From: a virus
Taxonomy: Duplodnaviria > Heunggongvirae > Uroviricota > Caudoviricetes
IMG/VR virus record: IMGVR_UViG_2563366822_000006
Direction: 5' to 3' (one strand)
Length of the DNA: 5,042 nucleotides
The position numbers were made by a program, and so were the translations under genes. Shown here piece by piece: positions 1 through 5,042 of this stretch; within the stretch, counting starts at the first letter, position 1; each line of letters starts with the position of its first letter. The notes below the pieces were generated by a model. It was not told the origin of the DNA. It did not search any database and saw only the letters and a list, made by a program, of their open reading frames with translations.

Positions 1-185
1 GCGCTGAAATTTCTTTTTTTCATTGGAGCACCTGTGTTGTTCTGAGGTGAGCATATCACCTCTGTTCAGGTGGCCAAATTCAGTGTGCCACTTCAGGGAT
101 TATTATCGGGTGCACTGATGCTGTATCGACAAATTATCATGACCGTACATCATATTACTCCGATAAAGCAATAGAGACACAGTAT

Positions 186-482
186 GTGAGTTCATCTGAA
201 CGTACTTCTGATGTTAGTGAGGATATCCGTCTGTATGCCCATCAAATCAAGAGCGCCATCGAAAAACAGTTCGGGGATGCGAGTAAGTATTCAGGAAAAG
301 AGTGTACACTGAGAATGCATATGGCCCCGAATGGCCTTCTACTGGAGGTTAAAAGAGAAAGTGGAGACCTCGATTTATGTCGTGAAGCGATGAATGCGAT
401 AAAGAATGCTGATATACCTGCCCCCCCTTCGCCGGAAGTATATAAAGTATTTCAAAATGGGGTGCTGGATTTTAAACCCTGA
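186..482 (+). CDS. TolA C-terminal domain (domain III)-like protein, no recognisable signal peptide; possibly a decayed or frameshifted paralog
   Basis: The 98-aa translation aligns by eye to E. coli TolA domain III (YAxQIKSAIE...GKxCTLR...APxGxLL...GDxxLC...PPSxxVYxVFxNxxLDFKP, ending in the same DFKP C-terminus) and keeps both cysteines of the TolAIII disulfide. The start is GTG (186) with only a weak Shine-Dalgarno sequence, and the in-frame upstream stretch (51-185) has no start codon. Confidence 0.6.
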   Translation: MSSSERTSDVSEDIRLYAHQIKSAIEKQFGDASKYSGKECTLRMHMAPNGLLLEVKRESGDLDLCREAMNAIKNADIPAPPSPEVYKVFQNGVLDFKP

Positions 483-524
483 TATTTATTGTTTTGTAAT
501 AAACGGTTTCGGCTTAGGTTTGTT

Positions 525-553
525 CTGACACAACTACGGCACTGAGCTAAATT
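525..553 (+). promoter_or_regulatory. Candidate sigma70 promoter for the TolA-like lipoprotein gene (-35 CTGACA, 17-bp spacer, -10 TAAATT)
   Basis: Hexamers read directly from the sequence about 80 bp upstream of the GTG at 633; the match to consensus is partial. Confidence 0.25.
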
Positions 554-632
554 TAGCGGATAGTCAGCTCTGAGCCAGTGGCGGACGTAACAACTACTAT
601 TGCTGAGATTTTAATGGATTGAGGAGCAAGAA

Positions 633-1028
633 GTGGGATTAAAGAAAATCGTTATGTTGACTTTTGGGGTCGGTTTTGTTGCGGGATGCACACCTTTACA
701 CCCTTCAGATTGCCACAAAACTACTGCTACAGGTAGTTGCAGTTCAGGACGCTGGGATGATCAGGATGAATGGGGGGCGCAAGCGCGGGGAATCAGAGCT
801 GCAATTAATGCCAAACTTGATGAGCCGCATAACTGGAAAGGGAAAAAATGCAGGTTGCATATGGAATTCTCTCAGGATGGCACGGCGTTAAAAATATCTA
901 CCAGTAACGGTGATAAAGCCTATTGCGAAGCGATAAAGTCCGCAGCTCATAAAGCCAAATTTCCGGCCTTCAACAATCCGGAAGTCTACAGAGATTTTCA
1001 GAAATCTGGCTTTGACATGCGAGGTTAG
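633..1028 (+). CDS. Predicted lipoprotein carrying a TolA domain III-like fold
   Basis: GTG start 6 nt after the Shine-Dalgarno sequence GAGGAG (621-626). The N-terminus MGLKKIVMLTFGVGFVAGC has a basic n-region, a hydrophobic h-region and the lipobox VAGC. The C-terminal ~80 aa conserve the TolAIII pattern (GKKCRL...DG.L...GD..YCEA...AK.P....PEVY.DF) including the two-cysteine pair. Confidence 0.7.
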   Translation: MGLKKIVMLTFGVGFVAGCTPLHPSDCHKTTATGSCSSGRWDDQDEWGAQARGIRAAINAKLDEPHNWKGKKCRLHMEFSQDGTALKISTSNGDKAYCEAIKSAAHKAKFPAFNNPEVYRDFQKSGFDMRG

Positions 1029-1153
1029 CTCTTCAATTACTATATCTCATTCATAGCAAACTGACAGATTTGATGATGTTCTATATACGAAACCTGTGAT
1101 GTCAAGTCTGAGCTAATACAAATAAACATAATATCAGAGAAATACATTTTATT

Positions 1154-1177
1154 AGCTCGCTACGGCGAGCTTTTTAT
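1154..1177 (+). terminator. Rho-independent terminator (stem AGCTCGC / GCGAGCT, loop TACG, then TTTTTAT)
   Basis: Perfect 7-bp GC-rich inverted repeat followed directly by a T-tract, between the TolA-like lipoprotein gene and the holin gene. It could be a moron terminator or a tR'-like late terminator. Confidence 0.6.
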
Positions 1178-1279
1178 ATTGCATCGTCTCCAGCATATAT
1201 ATCAATTAAGGCTCTGATTGATGTGTCTGGAAGCCTACACATAATAACTATGCCATCCGTTCCGTGCGGAGGTGAGGCT

Positions 1280-1495
1280 ATGAAATCCATGGACAAAATT
1301 TCAACAGGCATTGCCTACGGCACCTCCGCAGGCAGTGCTGGCTACTGGTTTTTACAGCTGCTCGATAAAGTCACGCCCTCACAGTGGGCAGCAATAGGTG
1401 TGCTGGGTAGCCTGGTATTTGGCCTGCTGACGTACCTGACAAATCTTTATTTCAAGATTAAAGAAGACAGGCGTAAGGCTGCGAGAGGAGAGTAA
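1280..1495 (+). CDS. S: Class II holin, S21-type pinholin with dual-start motif (antiholin/holin)
   Basis: The 71-aa product [71 protein letters not shown] is near-identical to my recollection of phage 21 S21 / E. coli EssD-EssQ. The Met1-Lys2-Ser3-Met4 dual start is present, with the Shine-Dalgarno sequence GGAGGTGAGG just upstream. The ORF-track start at 1223 is an in-frame artefactual extension. Confidence 0.9.
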
Positions 1496-1499
1496 TCCA

Positions 1500-1807
1500 A
1501 TGACTCAAGACTATGAACTGGTTGTGAAAGGAGTCCGTAATTTTGAGAATAAAGTTACGGTAACTGTAGCCTTACAGGACAAAGAACGCTTTGACGGTGA
1601 AATTTTTGGCCTGGATGTCGCCATGGACCGTGTTGAAGGAGCTGCGCTGGAGTTTTATGAGGCAGCAGCCAGAATGAGCGTCCGGCAAGTCTTCCTGGAA
1701 GTAGCAGAAAAATTGTCAGAAAAAGTTGAGTCTTATCTGCAGCATCAGTACTCCTTTAAGATTGAAAATCCTGCCAATAAGCACGAGCGTCCTCATCATA
1801 AATATCT

Positions 1808-1811
<4 letters not shown>
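1500..1811 (+). CDS. ydfR: YdfR-like (DUF1327) prophage protein of unknown function, inside the lysis cassette
   Basis: 103-aa ORF sitting between holin and endolysin, the same size and position as ydfR in the E. coli Qin prophage. Its ATG lies 4 nt after the holin stop and its stop overlaps the endolysin start (ATGA). Confidence 0.75.
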
Positions 1812-2835
<1,024 letters not shown>

Positions 2836-3195
2836 ATTAATATTAAATCGGATTATTTTTAGCGCTGAATGTGAAATTTAAATAAAAAGGACTCTTCCAT
2901 GAGTCAAAATCCTTGAAATCTTAAGGGTAAGATAAAAGGTCATTAGACAGAATGACACGTTTTATTAATAAATAAAGCTATTGTTTCATTCGTGTGTTTT
3001 TCTTTACAAAAGTAATCCTTGCTATGGTTGGTTAATCATGCGTTAATGGTGTTCTGGTTTGTTACAAAATTATCTGAAGCAGTCATTGTTATAATTTTAT
3101 TATTTGTACCTCTTGAGATTTCCTTGTTGGTTTTTCTCTCTGATATTTTTTTTCGGACCATTCTGCCCAAGGGCTAACTTCTTCAAAAGGTAATA
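2836..3195 (+). promoter_or_regulatory. AT-rich promoter and long 5' leader region of the cold-shock gene (CspA-family-type leader)
   Basis: A 360-bp AT-rich non-coding stretch with no ORF longer than a few codons. CspA-family genes characteristically have long 5' UTRs; a -10-like GTTAAT (3042-3047) lies 17 bp downstream of TTGCTA (3019-3024). Exact promoter and transcription start are not determinable from sequence alone. Confidence 0.35.
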
Positions 3196-3411
3196 ATGAT
3201 GTCTAACAAAATGACTGGTTTAGTGAAATGGTTTAACCCTGAAAAAGGTTTTGGTTTCATCACGCCGAAAGATGGTAGCAAAGATGTGTTTGTGCATTTC
3301 TCAGCTATTCAGAGCAACGATTTCAAAACGTTAACTGAGAATCAGGAAGTCGAATTTGGTATTGAGAACGGACCTAAAGGCCCTGCAGCTGTTCATGTAG
3401 TGGCACTTTGA
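3196..3411 (+). CDS. cspI: Cold-shock protein, CspA family (CspI-like, prophage-encoded)
   Basis: Translation [71 protein letters not shown] carries the cold-shock-domain RNP1 (KGFGFI) and RNP2 (VFVHF) motifs. It differs from my recollection of CspA, CspB and CspG and matches CspI. Shine-Dalgarno AAGG is upstream; the true start may be the second ATG (3199). Confidence 0.9.
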
Positions 3412-3615
3412 GGTAGAAAATATTACAAACCATATTCACTTTAGATGCCCGTGTTGCCATGGTTCTCAGTATAGAACATCATCTTTTGATGTTTCTGACA
3501 GAAATCCTTTCGGGGCAAAATGTATCTTTTGTAAATCAATGATGATTACATTTGATAATATTTCACAATACTTAAATGTTAGCCATCTGTCGTTAGATTT
3601 AAGAAAGTGAAAATG

Positions 3616-3638
3616 AAGGCTCCTTCGGGAGCTTTTTT
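3616..3638 (+). terminator. Rho-independent terminator (stem GGCTCC / GGAGC(T), UUCG tetraloop, T6 tract)
   Basis: Hairpin plus T-tract read directly. It lies about 200 bp after the cspI stop and about 45 bp before the next ORF. An A-rich 5' flank makes it potentially bidirectional. Confidence 0.55.
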
Positions 3639-3682
3639 GCTTAGTGTCTAGTCGATGGATACTCACATATTACGGTAACATT

Positions 3683-3913
3683 ATGAAAAAAATAATAGTT
3701 TTTTTTAACTCTGAACCAGCAATGGTAGTGCCAGTGATGACCGGAGTTAACACCATCATGCGTGAATATCCAAATGGCGAAACAACACACCTCACTGTAA
3801 TGGCTGCAGGGTTTCCATCTCTGACCGGAGATCATAAAGTCATTTATGTAGCAGCGGATCGACATGTAACTTCAGAAGAAATTCTGGAAGCAGCAATGAG
3901 ACTCTTGAATTGA
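3683..3913 (+). CDS. Small hypothetical prophage protein (possibly YnfN-like); start codon uncertain
   Basis: ORF in the position ynfN occupies in the Qin prophage (cspI - ynfN - gnsB). In-frame ATGs at 3683, 3722, 3737 and 3758; the 3758 start gives a 51-aa product with a GGAG about 11 nt upstream. I cannot recall a reference sequence, so there is no direct homology support. Confidence 0.45.
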   Translation: MKKIIVFFNSEPAMVVPVMTGVNTIMREYPNGETTHLTVMAAGFPSLTGDHKVIYVAADRHVTSEEILEAAMRLLN

Positions 3914-4030
3914 TTTGATTCTAATGCATTGATAATAAATGATAATCATCTTTATCTGTTTGTGTGAAATTTAGACCGTCGTATGTTGATTATTGCGATG
4001 TTTCATCTTATCTTTTATACGTTTGCTCCA

Positions 4031-4036
4031 TATAAT
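4031..4036 (+). promoter_or_regulatory. Candidate -10 hexamer (TATAAT) upstream of the gnsB-like gene
   Basis: Perfect consensus -10 about 50 bp before the start codon. No good -35 at 16-18 bp spacing; a TTGACA at 4036-4041 overlaps it. Confidence 0.25.
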
Positions 4037-4082
4037 TGACACTACTGTGTACCAGGACAGTCATAACAGACTAAAAGAGGAA

Positions 4083-4259
4083 ATGATGAACATTGAAGAG
4101 TTAAAAACAAAAACAGAAGCAGATATTTCTGAATATATAACAAAAAAAATCATTGAGCTTAAGAAAAAGACCGGGAAAGAAGTTACCAGTATCCAGTTTA
4201 CTGCACGGGAAAAAATGACTGGTCTTGAAAGCTATGATATCAAGATTGATTTAATCTAG
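4083..4259 (+). CDS. gnsB: GnsA/GnsB-family protein
   Basis: Product MMNIEELKTKTEADISEYITKKIIELKKKTGKEVTSIQFTAREKMTGLESYDIKIDLI matches my recollection of the 57-aa GnsA/GnsB family (MNIEELK...TGKEV...FTAREKMTGLESYD.KI). Strong Shine-Dalgarno AAGAGGA before ATG 4083. The ORF-track start at 3993 is an artefactual extension. Confidence 0.85.
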   Translation: MMNIEELKTKTEADISEYITKKIIELKKKTGKEVTSIQFTAREKMTGLESYDIKIDLI

Positions 4260-4324
4260 CATGTTTATAGTATTAGCATCAATTTCTCATCAGATGCTAT
4301 TCAACAATACAAATTACCCATAAA

Positions 4325-4347
4325 CCTCGTTTTTACGGGGTTTTGTT
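4325..4347 (+). terminator. Putative intrinsic terminator (stem CCTCG / CGGGG with one G-U pair, loop TTTTTA, then TTTTGTT)
   Basis: Short hairpin followed by a T-tract about 65 bp downstream of the gnsB-like stop. The stem is short, so confidence is low. Confidence 0.4.
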
Positions 4348-4554
4348 ATATTTAAACATTACCGAATAGATATAAATCTCGATTGTCGATGGTATTGGTT
4401 GTGTGACAATACCTAGTCTTTCCGGTATGCCTGAAGAGAATACAAACGACAGATTATGTAAGGGAAACGCGCTGAAACTTTCACTCTTTCATGCTGAGTG
4501 ATTTGACGTTATATTTTTAGCCGCAAGTGAAGAGCAAACGAATGGAGCGACAAA

Positions 4555-4761
4555 ATGCATAAAGATCAATACACTGATGCCCCCTCCCAGGAGCAGGTTC
4601 GTGTAAAAACTATGCTTAATAGCACCATTTCGATGGGTTACCCGGATGTTGTAATTGCATGTATAGAACATCAAGTATCTCTGGAAGCATTCAGGGCAAT
4701 TGAGGCCGCGTTAGTAAAGCACGATAAGAATACGAAGGATTATTCCTTGGTGGTTGACTGA
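4555..4761 (+). CDS. Hypothetical small prophage protein (possibly YdfO/DUF1398-like by position; unverified)
   Basis: 68-aa ORF with Shine-Dalgarno GGAG 8 nt before the ATG, in the position ydfO occupies after gnsB in Qin-like prophages. I cannot confirm homology from memory. Confidence 0.45.
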
Positions 4762-4855
4762 TCACCATAACTGCTAACCATTCTGACCATTTCACAATGT
4801 GTAAGTTCACAGAGATATTGCAATTGCCTCCGGATAAGTAAGGGGAGATTGCACT

Positions 4856-5023
4856 ATGCAAATGCAGCATCTGATGGTTGGCTATCCTAAGTACTACCAA
4901 ACGGCCGATTATGCGTTGAGGCTTTCAGTGATGGCTGATATAGCAACAATGAAGTGGTCAACAAAAACTGGCCACCGAGTTAGAGTTTTTCCAGTATCGA
5001 TTTTCCGATTCGTTTGGGGGTAA
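4856..5023 (+). CDS. Hypothetical small ORF (55 aa); may be a gene remnant
   Basis: ATG preceded by Shine-Dalgarno AAGGGGA (4840-4846), ending at TAA 5021-5023. It is absent from the ORF track (below the length cut-off) and shares a weak GYP-centred motif with the preceding ORF. Confidence 0.25.
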   Translation: MQMQHLMVGYPKYYQTADYALRLSVMADIATMKWSTKTGHRVRVFPVSIFRFVWG

Positions 5024-5042
5024 TCCACCGTTATATTCGTGC

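Follow-up and report, generated by a model that had tools for sequence, protein, structure and literature searches.

The DNA analysed here, a 5,042-nt stretch of a Caudoviricetes genome (the window, at its full length), probably carries at positions 96-1243 the 3' remainder of a 1,350-bp cargo cassette, whose transcription in the lysogen would be stopped at an intrinsic terminator (1154-1177) that late, Q-dependent transcription would read through. By comparison with its relatives, the host setting is the late operon of lambdoid E. coli and Shigella prophages, between Q and the holin. The features of the window are collected in Table 1; the lysis cassette begins with the holin gene.

Table 1. 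Features of the window (positions are those of the whole stretch)
Feature	Positions	Strand	Remarks
IS911 / IS3-family left end	1-95	-	IRL and first orfA codons (MKKRNFS...); reads leftwards
TolA-1 remnant	96-482	+	3' 387 nt; pseudogene; cut inside the signal peptide
Spacer between TolA genes	483-632	+	150 nt; promoter-like 525-553 and GAGGAG 621-626
TolA-2	633-1028	+	131-aa predicted lipoprotein, intact; PF06519 E 1.3e-14
3' untranslated stretch	1029-1153	+	AT-rich, 29% GC; holds the 1061-1089 site and the 1110-1121 arm
Intrinsic terminator (predicted)	1154-1177	+	7-bp stem, UACG loop, five T
Cassette tail	1178-1243	+	Last 66 nt; right junction 1243/1244 with sequence of cassette-free phages
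Holin leader and ribosome-binding region, GGAGGTGAGG	1244-1279	+	Common to phages without the cassette
S21-type (class II) holin, dual start MKSM	1280-1495	+	PF04971 E 5.5e-36
ydfR-like	1500-1811		Lysis cassette; PF07041
Lysozyme	1808-2341		Lysis cassette; PF00959
Rz-like	2338-2835		Lysis cassette; PF10721

Comparison with intact relatives, namely phage mEp460_ev081 and the complete E. coli genomes that carry the cassette (775 of 5,426, ~14%, among them IMT16316, GB089, and O91:H21 FWSEC0008), delimits a discrete block that would run from -106 to 1243 in window coordinates. It consists of two TolA-like genes flanked by 160 bp on their upstream side and, counting the terminator, 215 bp on their downstream side, and it is bordered by an STnc100-type small RNA element on the left and an S21-type holin on the right. 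The order in intact copies is a 160-bp AT-rich leader, TolA-1, the 150-nt spacer, TolA-2, the 125-nt 3' untranslated region, the terminator, 66 bases, and the holin leader. In L001, an intact-cassette relative whose coordinates are numbered separately from those of the window, positions 5617-5798 and 7149-7500 match PhiR49_2, and the gap between these matches is 1,350 bp in L001 versus 188 bp in PhiR49_2. E. coli GABEEC132, an "empty site" genome, gives the same insertion pattern. By this presence/absence between the same flanks, which is one mark of a moron, the cassette is an insertion relative to related phages. On the right, homology picks up again from 1244 in PhiR49_2 and from 1253 in HannyBb, and the same slot is filled otherwise in HannyBb, 640R1, and Stx2 phages. 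Among the relatives compared, the cassette is combined with either of two Q types and either of two packaging backbones, always with the S21-type holin on its 3' side. Its GC content (36-47%) differs modestly from that of Q (47-52%) and the lysis genes (46-50%). The copies are ~99% identical (98-100% among 88 copies), and covariation can therefore support neither a promoter nor a terminator. Across 50,697 phage records, two TolA-domain-III lipoproteins as phage cargo were found in one record, and the noncoding parts of the cassette had no other match.

A moron is an extra, usually independently expressed gene inserted into a phage operon (definition quoted in PMC2629481). The cassette resembles the morons of lambdoid phages in its presence or absence between the same flanks, in its leader with a promoter-like site, in its predicted 3' terminator, and, modestly, in a GC content below that of its neighbors, and the Q-S slot also holds stx2AB in Stx phages. 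Among familiar morons are stx1/stx2 and nanS-p, which occupy the same Q-to-S interval, as well as bor and lom of lambda. The cassette differs from these in that TolA-domain-III lipoprotein cargo is undescribed in phages and in that its head has here been lost to IS911. The comparative anatomy thus fits a moron, although the self-contained unit proposed in the first-pass annotation (483-1279) was drawn too small, as the block is larger and its best promoter-like site lies upstream of TolA-1.

In the window, the IS911 end stands in place of the 5' region of the cassette and the first 42 nt of TolA-1, the insertion point being 42 nt past the TolA-1 ATG (14 codons gone). Base 96 is where homology to the intact cassette starts in 88 of 88 relatives, and bases 1-100 match thousands of copies labelled "IS3-like element IS911 family transposase." In the source scaffold, KB732916.1 of GCA_000351925.1, which has two gaps, the window is immediately preceded by an N-gap, and the IS911/TolA-1 junction was absent from the viral contig collection searched. 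Intact TolA-1 (L001 5959-6387) has 142 aa and is a lipoprotein bearing a TolA C-terminal domain, and its signal peptide and lipobox read from the sequence as MGFRSASILTLIISGIIIG-C. The earliest in-frame start remaining in the window is a GTG at 186, which is without the signal peptide. Because IS911 took both the promoter-like site and the first 14 codons, TolA-1 is a pseudogene here, and as judged from this junction the window's copy of the cassette is a decapitated remnant. Of the "TolA-like genes" of the first-pass annotation, that at 633-1028 is intact, but 186-482 is only the 3' part of the 142-aa gene. TolA-2 alone could still be made from this genome, either from the weak site at 525-553 or by read-through.

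TolA-2 starts with GTG behind its Shine-Dalgarno sequence and carries a predicted lipoprotein signal, MGLKKIVMLTFGVGFVAGC, with the lipobox VAGC, the lipobox cysteine at position 19, and threonine at +2. The end of this signal, MGLKKIVMLTFGVGFVAG-C, agrees with the lipobox pattern [LVI][ASTVI][GAS]C, as does that of TolA-1; both lipoprotein calls were made from the signal and lipobox as read by eye from the translations. Threonine at +2 after the lipobox cysteine suggests sorting to the outer membrane. Both proteins match the TolA C-terminal domain by profile and by comparison with known TolA sequence or structures. TolA-1 scored 82.6 bits against PF06519 (E 2.4e-23) and TolA-2 scored 54.6 bits, with a cut-off of 25. 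TolA-1 aligned with residues 334-421 of E. coli TolA over 88 residues (E 5e-28, ~60% identical as counted by eye from the alignment), and TolA-2 aligned with solved TolA domain III structures (E 5e-9, ~30% identical, also counted by eye). The two cysteines of E. coli TolA domain III (~334-421; PDB 1S62, 1TOL, and 3QDR) are kept in both.

The likeness ends with this domain. Only profile positions 265-387 of full-length TolA were matched, and scores were below the full-length cut-offs for NF007065 (TolA-1 at 108 bits and TolA-2 at 54, versus 213) and for TIGR02794 (TolA-2 at 47 versus 59); the RefSeq name "tolA: cell envelope integrity protein TolA" on TolA-1 is therefore an over-annotation. In contrast to full E. 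coli TolA, the cassette proteins have a lipoprotein signal peptide instead of domain I (the membrane anchor and TolQR coupling) and are also without domain II, so that they cannot transduce force and could at most compete for ligands.

TolA-2 had 369 homologues. More than 600 IncI-gamma/K-type plasmids have a relative 3' of the nikB relaxase gene, and in many Enterobacteriaceae relatives occur as single genes. At 31 loci of distant homologues in other genera and on plasmids, nucleotide homology is confined to ~598-1031, bases 483-597 are unconserved in the other genera, and the neighbors are unrelated host genes. Neither the 525-553 site nor the terminator accompanies the gene in other genera or on plasmids, and the confined homology indicates that the promoter-like site and the terminator are not part of the gene itself. 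A literature search for prophage TolA-like genes or for the cassette found no study of either. EDL933_2012 has been called a TolA-type protein and was 32-fold induced by ciprofloxacin (PMC11125564). We rejected it as a TolA relative, as the gene is annotated as a tail fiber and no TolA-like gene was found in that 49-kb stretch of EDL933.

The first-pass annotation had named two candidate sigma70 sites. At 525-553 the hexamers are present (CTGACA-17-TAAATT, 9 of 12 consensus positions), but the site is weak or marginal: its score was reached by 4.3% of shuffles of its own spacer (P 0.043), and the window holds 12 sites of this quality versus 11.8 expected from shuffles. Rough position-weight scoring places it second among the plus-strand sites of the 3-kb Q-to-S interval. 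The spacer around it showed no terminator and no significant structure (fold z = -0.31). The second site, CTGACA at 1061-1066 with a -10 around 1082-1089, is at the level of chance. The hexamer is followed by TATATA at 15 nt or TATACG at 17 nt, both without the conserved final T; the site ranks 21st, has a local shuffle P of 0.72, and is not reported by the consensus scan. The best promoter-like site of the cassette is instead TTGAGC-18-TATAAT (L001 5900-5929), ~30 nt before the TolA-1 ATG, which is missing from the window owing to IS911. It is the top plus-strand site of the 3-kb Q-to-holin interval (local shuffle P 0.013), but its score is equalled in 11% of shuffled 3-kb intervals and is not compelling alone. 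E. coli M8, whose variant has TolA-1 only, shows TGTAAT in place of TATAAT, with loss of the key A, and in the OkiPb01696 variant the site is absent. Other candidates were discarded: TTGATG-16-CATAAT (1218-1245), before the holin, was attributed to chance because it straddles the cassette junction and has a local P of 0.06, and minus-strand open reading frames at 1040-1147 and 1174-1311 with a minus-strand promoter-like site at 1067-1039 are short, unsupported, and at chance level.

The weak or marginal standing of each promoter-like site, together with the loss of the TolA-1 site in the M8 and OkiPb01696 variants, agrees with a purely late cargo, a reading that we consider possible but rather unlikely. 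The cassette would then have no working promoter of its own, its transcripts would come solely from Q-modified polymerase that started at pR' or from read-through out of STnc100 or cargo lying upstream, and the hairpin would be one of a series of terminators keeping lysis dependent on Q. The position of the cassette inside the late transcription unit also agrees with this, as does its left junction, which lies inside a copy of STnc100 (RF02076) whose own terminator is displaced, so that transcription begun upstream could run on into the cassette. A terminator ahead of the holin is common irrespective of the cargo: of 9 different Q-S intervals compared, 7 have a terminator-like hairpin on the plus strand 40-200 nt upstream of the holin. 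A purely late cargo sits less well with the best plus-strand site of the interval standing just ahead of the first ATG, or with a block that has its own AT-rich leader and terminator in the manner of a moron. Exported cargo of this type, such as bor and lom of lambda, Cor, and Llp, also usually acts in the lysogen.

As the alternative to a moron, the first-pass annotation had read 1061-1177 as a late promoter with a terminator of the pR'/tR' kind, whose read-through would require Q. The geometry recalls the pR'-6S RNA-tR' unit of lambda, with a CTGACA hexamer ~90 nt before a good intrinsic terminator upstream of the holin, but the real homologue of that unit is found beside Q. Intact relatives have, immediately after Q and ~1.3 kb upstream of the cassette, a promoter (L001 4571-4672) that aligns with lambda pR' and is followed by its own terminator. 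It has TTGAyT, GGTAAATT, and an AAyGATGGG pause-type element in common with lambda, none of which is present at 1061-1090, and its tR' homologue, AACCCGCCGCCGAGCGGGTT-T6, is followed by tRNA-Met and tRNA-Arg. An extended -10, a -10-like pause element, and GGG are all present at L001 4571-4620, whereas 1061-1100 has none of them. Terminators likewise come after Q where it is of the other type. Position 1061 does not adjoin a Q gene: the end of Q is ~2.4 kb upstream of it in intact relatives, and no Q gene was found in the window or within 6.3 kb upstream in the source assembly. The 1061-1177 sequence is entirely missing from cassette-free phages that have this holin. Because the true pR'/tR' lies directly after Q, we reject the pR'/tR' reading of 1061-1177, which is contradicted by the comparative data and hardly credible.

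The GC-rich stem and T-tract that had been noticed between the TolA-like gene and the holin were confirmed. The hairpin AGCTCGC-TACG-GCGAGCT (1154-1171) has a perfect 7-bp stem with five G-C pairs and a cUACGg tetraloop and is followed by TTTTTATATT. It was found by the consensus scan and folds at -13 kcal/mol; shuffled sequences gave -4.6 +/- 1.9 (z = -4.4), and none of the 200 matched it. With a stem of at least 5 pairs, a loop of 3-8 nt, a T-rich tract, and a stability far beyond that of shuffles, the hairpin and T-tract are by sequence a textbook intrinsic terminator. The T-tract is on the plus strand only, so that the terminator would act on transcripts with the orientation of the TolA and holin genes. 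It lies 125 nt past the TolA-2 stop (1028), 108 nt ahead of the holin ATG (1280), and 66 nt short of the right junction, which gives the cassette a predicted 3' terminator of its own. It is kept in every cassette copy, with variants only at loop base 1163 and at C1158, which changes to T (G-U pair kept) or G. We detected no second plus-strand terminator-like site from L001 5280 to 7059.

Bases 1110-1121 may pair with 1147-1158 and thereby occupy the five 5'-most bases of the terminator stem; this competing pairing could lower the efficiency of the terminator. It is highly unlikely, however, that the terminator is part of an attenuator in which this pairing makes read-through into the holin tunable. 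Eleven of the 12 bases are complementary, the nascent RNA up to base 1160 forms the helix at -9.2 kcal/mol, and such a match in any overlapping register arises in ~0.9% of shuffles, but the terminator wins at equilibrium (-12.7 versus -7.9 kcal/mol, with pair probabilities of >0.99). Neither a leader peptide nor a ligand-binding fold nor a known protein site was apparent, the near-identical copies offer no covariation to draw on, and a leaky terminator before the holin would be costly to the lysogen.

Small RNAs are typical neighbors of this holin operon. STnc100 has been described 75 nt downstream of stx2 (PMC12370729), and the PasA, PasC, and PasD small RNA units beside this holin operon are abundant in uninduced EPEC (PMC8550237; bioRxiv 10.64898/2026.05.13.724894). 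The cassette resembles these units in occupying the same Q-to-holin interval and in having an intrinsic terminator at its 3' end; the small RNA units also recur as linkers between cargo genes. The cassette differs from them in the sequence of its terminator, and PasA and PasC lie on the strand opposite to the holin. We consider it very unlikely that 1090-1177 or the whole 3' untranslated region gives rise to a comparable small regulatory RNA, whether derived from the 3' untranslated region or transcribed from 1061. The hairpin and U-tract after an A/U-rich stretch are like those of Hfq-dependent small RNAs, and an untranslated stretch of 125 nt is long, but the U-tract has only five U and the promoter at 1061 is at chance level. 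The whole 251 nt of 1029-1279 fold with a z of -2.0 including the terminator, and the remainder does little better than shuffles. Rfam gave no match in 1029-1279 (E <= 1), the only hit being a sub-threshold STnc350 at 614-684 (22 versus 60 bits); no STnc100 or Pas sequence was found in the window, and PasA and PasD2 of E2348/69 had no similarity to window positions 1-1300.

The cargo cassette with its own terminator is the probable explanation. In the lysogen, transcription from the cassette or from the STnc100 element would yield two lipoproteins of outer-membrane type, and the transcripts would end at 1154-1177, so that transcription could not reach the lysis genes for the pinholin and SAR-endolysin. 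In lytic growth of lambda, Q-modified polymerase transcribes everything from pR' to the holin, including any gene there that has a promoter of its own. After induction, Q-modified polymerase starting at pR' would ignore 1154-1177, as it does tR', and the TolA and lysis genes would be transcribed together. The cassette is codirectional with the late operon, so Q read-through would also express it, as is the case for stx. Because the cassette lies between pR' and the holin and Q-modified polymerase would cross it anyway, the choice between a moron and a late product, on which the first-pass annotation had made the role of the TolA-like genes depend, is a false one, and the products may be both lysogen expressed and late.

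TolA domain III binds the N terminus of TolB, colicin A, and g3p-N1 (PMC7391070). On domain identity alone, the cassette proteins are probably periplasmic TolA-domain-III decoys, for which the N terminus of TolB, group A colicins, and the g3p of filamentous phages would be possible ligands. Phages encode other small lipoproteins exported to the envelope; Llp of T5 and Cor of phi80 and N15 are outer membrane lipoproteins that block a receptor or entry route. The cassette proteins are likewise small, phage-encoded, exported envelope lipoproteins, with a plausible role in excluding competitors that use a machine of the host envelope. They differ in having no sequence relation to Llp or Cor and in that their target would be Tol ligands rather than FhuA. 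A broader proposal, which we put forward tentatively and consider unlikely as a whole, is that the cassette and its relatives form a widespread mobile class of envelope defense. Decoys tethered in the periplasm of a lysogen or plasmid host would soak up TolA ligands, with colicin tolerance, phage exclusion, or tuning of Tol-Pal (vesiculation or lysis) as the outcome; their transcription would be firmly coupled to the STnc100 element, in which the cassette took the place of the terminator, and the new terminator and the competing pairing would set the leak into the holin.

The architecture described here is ordinary, with cargo, a terminator, and lysis genes in a Q-controlled late operon, and the view of late control is unchanged. 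What is gained are the true limits of the unit, the placement of the real pR'/tR', and the recognition that lysogenic and late expression are not mutually exclusive. The more interesting part is the cargo: a lipoprotein-anchored TolA domain III is carried by about one in seven of the complete E. coli genomes, by hundreds of conjugative plasmids, and by many other enterobacteria. If these proteins are decoys for colicins or filamentous phages, they would represent a new class of mobile protective genes.

In scaffold KB732916.1 (assembly GCA_000351925.1), the single contig between two N runs is a perfect match to the 5,042-base window. From 96 to 4801 the window shares 99.9% identity with mEp460_ev081, a temperate coliphage (LR597641; L001, our intact relative, in which positions equal window positions plus 5905). 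It comes from a Qin-like lambdoid prophage, where it covers the distal portion of the Q-to-lysis region. Bases 1 to 95 belong to one end of an IS911 element inserted 42 nt into the first TolA-like gene (TolA-1), which is therefore a pseudogene in the window genome. The right end (about 4950 to 5042) is a repeat end as well; a second IS3-family-like end (TGAAGTGGTCAACAAAAACTGGCCACC...) was seen there, recurring inverted at 13531 to 13623 of L126, the locus covering this scaffold. Both window ends adjoin N-gaps of KB732916.1 (the regions concerned are L126 4924 to 6368 and 11411 to 13395). No Q gene lies in the 6.3 kb of scaffold upstream of the gap, which hold host genes (an ansP-like permease, a GST, and a VgrG-like gene that is truncated). 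The scaffold join is uncertain because it runs through a repeat. The locus looks like a prophage remnant riddled with IS elements.

Features of the window (window numbering) and of compared loci (L-numbers)
Feature	Position	Remarks
STnc100 copy (RF02076)	-247 to -57 (L001 5658-5848)	conserved 180-bp linker; 114 bits vs threshold 47
Cassette, 1,350 bp	-106 to 1243 (L001 5799-7148)	in order: 160-bp AT-rich leader, TolA-1, 150-nt spacer, TolA-2, 125-nt 3' UTR, terminator, 66 bases
TolA-1, 3' part only	ends 482	TolA-like lipoprotein gene
TolA-2, intact	633-1028	TolA-like lipoprotein gene
Terminator	1154-1177	
Holin's own leader	1244-1279	36 bases, common to cassette-free phages
S21-type holin	1280-1495	
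ydfR-like gene, lysozyme, Rz-like gene		3' of holin, in this order
cspA thermoregulator 5' UTR (RF01766)	3041-3457	full-length match at cold-shock gene; 110 bits vs threshold 78
Prophage cold-shock gene	3196-3411	after Rz-like gene, with cspA-type 5' UTR; then gnsB-like and other small genes
TolA-1-only variant, E. coli M8	L120 2693-3121	94% identity
TolA-1-only variant, E. coli OkiPb01696	L121 2433-2861	82% identity
Plasmid TolA-2 variant	L118 4965-5396 (pB2C_83)	also L119, L087, L088
Insertions in cassette, viral contig L011	2725-3921; 4614-5942	about 1.2 kb; about 1.3 kb
Terminator-like hairpins before holin	40-200 nt upstream	L003, L084, L085, L120, L122, L131
Q-to-holin intervals with STnc100 linkers		L120, L121, L084, L085, L123

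Comparison with phages having the same flanks delimits the cassette as a discrete block, in whose position PhiR49_2 has 188 bp instead and which E. coli GABEEC132 lacks. The block, non-coding parts and proteins alike, occurs in one of 50,697 phage records, 125 viral contigs, and 775 of the 5,426 complete E. coli genomes. Two unrelated Q types lie upstream of it and the lysis and packaging modules downstream vary, with the S21-type holin invariably next. The AT content of the cassette is somewhat above that of its neighbors. Judged by these sequence comparisons, the block is a moron in the comparative sense quoted in PMC2629481. At the two insertions in contig L011, presumably IS elements, window bases 553 to 556 (4 bp) and 1238 to 1246 (9 bp) are repeated on either side; one insertion is at the end of the promoter-like site at 525 to 553, the other at the cassette/holin junction. 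In the two TolA-1-only variants, TolA-1 is followed by STnc100 copies, with a terminator (AGCCCCTCTCCGGAGGGGCT plus a T-run) that would end the transcript.

The terminator placed by the first-pass annotation after the TolA-like gene and ahead of the holin is borne out as described. A pattern scan reported the hairpin at 1154 to 1171 (AGCTCGC-TACG-GCGAGCT, then TTTTTATATT), with its T-run on the plus strand only, and the fold has -13 kcal/mol versus -4.6 in shuffles (z = -4.4; 0 of 200 shuffles equally stable). Plus-strand terminator-like hairpins, different in sequence in each interval, lie 40 to 200 nt ahead of the holin start in seven of the nine different Q-S intervals examined, with none in the remaining two, lambda and HannyBb. 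Given how common such hairpins are, the one at 1154 is just the form that a widespread device takes in the cassette and nothing special. This distribution suggests a general insulation of the lysis genes against cargo transcription: on the simplest reading, transcription of the cargo region in the lysogen would have to be halted ahead of the holin and endolysin. The Q-modified polymerase of lambda overrides terminators after induction, and by this precedent the pre-holin stops would then be overridden. The segment 1110 to 1121 is complementary to 1147 to 1158 at 11 of 12 positions, the 3' arm overlapping the terminator stem in its first five bases. Nascent RNA to 1160 favors this pairing (-9.2 kcal/mol), and the terminator prevails once its own 3' arm is present. 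An equally good match arises in about 0.9% of shuffles, and the pairing is possibly a competing, antiterminator-like one.

The other option raised for this region, a pR'/tR'-like late promoter and terminator pair requiring Q, is contradicted by the position of the real pair. In L001, Q (273 aa, PF03589) ends at 4565 and is directly followed by TTGATT-16-(TG)G-TAAATT, then CATAATGATGGG, which aligns base for base with lambda pR' (TTGACT, GGTAAATT, AACGATGGG). A terminator (AACCCGCCGCCGAGCGGGTT-T6) lies about 45 nt past this pR', with tRNA-Met and tRNA-Arg next; relatives with the other Q type (DUF1133) have terminators after Q too. Since the pair adjoins Q, the cassette lies some 1.3 kb downstream of the late promoter and its terminator. 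No pR' features were found at 1061 to 1100, and 1061 to 1177 was rejected as such a pair. In Rfam, the short pR'-to-tR' leader of the 273-aa-Q phages (L001 4566 to 4672) scores below threshold against both Trp_leader (25.6 bits) and isrK (18.1 bits). IsrK is an RNA of the Gifsy-1 prophage, and a relation of the leader to it is possible.

Promoter-like sites were ranked by a rough position-weight score using hexamer frequencies from the literature. The sigma70 hexamers noted at 525 to 553 (CTGACA-17-TAAATT) are present and rank second on the plus strand of the 3-kb Q-to-holin interval but are marginal: 4.3% of shuffles of their own spacer attain the score, and such matches are equally frequent in the window and in shuffles (12 versus 11.8). 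The pair proposed at CTGACA 1061 is not supported, as its TATATA/TATACG -10 entails a 15-nt spacer or loss of the conserved last T, it is absent from the sites reported by the pattern scan of the window, and it ranks 21st with a score matched by 72% of shuffles. The cassette's best site, TTGAGC-18-TATAAT (L001 5900 to 5929, 30 nt 5' of the TolA-1 ATG), is the highest on the plus strand of the interval (local P of 0.013); its equivalent, window -5 to 24, is replaced by IS911. The site is not kept in the two TolA-1-only variants, and its conservation elsewhere is uninformative because full copies are all about 99% identical; a promoter of the cassette's own is therefore a plausible candidate. 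The anatomy, a block with leader and terminator, supports the self-contained moron of the first-pass annotation.

Transcription may also enter from the left. Q-to-holin intervals repeatedly carry STnc100 copies between their cargo genes: M8 has five, OkiPb01696 four, phage 640R1 two, and PhiR49_2 one. Such copies also occur 75 nt downstream of stx2 (PMC12370729). The left junction of the cassette is inside an STnc100 copy, whose terminator is displaced; in place of the family's 3' terminator, L001 has an AU-rich hairpin without a U-run. As no terminator-like site was found from this copy to window 1154, a transcript begun at or before it would cross both TolA genes and stop at 1154 to 1177. 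STnc100 is related to PasD (bioRxiv 10.64898/2026.05.13.724894), and uninduced EPEC contains RNAs of the PasD type in abundance (PMC8550237 supplement).

TolA-1 matches E. coli TolA residues 334 to 421 (E of 5e-28; roughly 60% identical positions) and TolA-2 matches TolA at E of 5e-9 (roughly 30%), the percentages being our own count on the printed alignment; both retain the cysteine pair. Whereas E. coli TolA has a membrane anchor and long helix, these proteins have lipoprotein signal peptides in their place, and both fall below full-length TolA models, so they cannot substitute for TolA. RefSeq names TolA-1 "tolA: cell envelope integrity protein TolA," yet it has domain III only and falls below the NF007065 cut-off. 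EDL933_2012, discussed as a TolA-type protein in PMC11125564, is a tail fiber protein in that paper's own table and in RefSeq. Domain III binds the TolB N terminus, colicin A, and g3p-N1 of filamentous phages (PMC7391070). As this is the ligand-binding part, the most economical guess is that TolA-1 and TolA-2 might act as decoys or competitors.

Relatives of TolA-2, 65 to 89% identical, occur in Citrobacter, Enterobacter, Klebsiella, Leclercia, Serratia, and others. The homologues (L089 to L116) each occur as a single gene, at numerous unrelated sites in the chromosomes of at least a dozen enterobacterial genera, and conservation is confined to the reading frame and roughly 35 nt in front of it; in a Leclercia example the gene adjoins hyc hydrogenase genes. 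An 88%-identical variant lies directly downstream of a nikB/MobA-type relaxase gene on >600 E. coli and Shigella plasmids of IncI-gamma/K type (IncI-gamma/K1; MOBP, MPF_I). The same plasmid segment is present in two probably mis-binned MAG contigs labeled "Lachnospiraceae" and "Treponemataceae." Nucleotide similarity of chromosomal and plasmid relatives to the window ends at about 598 and 1031, so the spacer, 3' UTR, and terminator are the phage cassette's own.

The TolA-like genes are likely to be both lysogenic and late products, since the cassette is part of the transcript under Q control. In the window genome the unit is a headless remnant. An architecture of this kind is nothing unusual in a lambdoid prophage; the TolA-like cargo is unstudied and moderately interesting.
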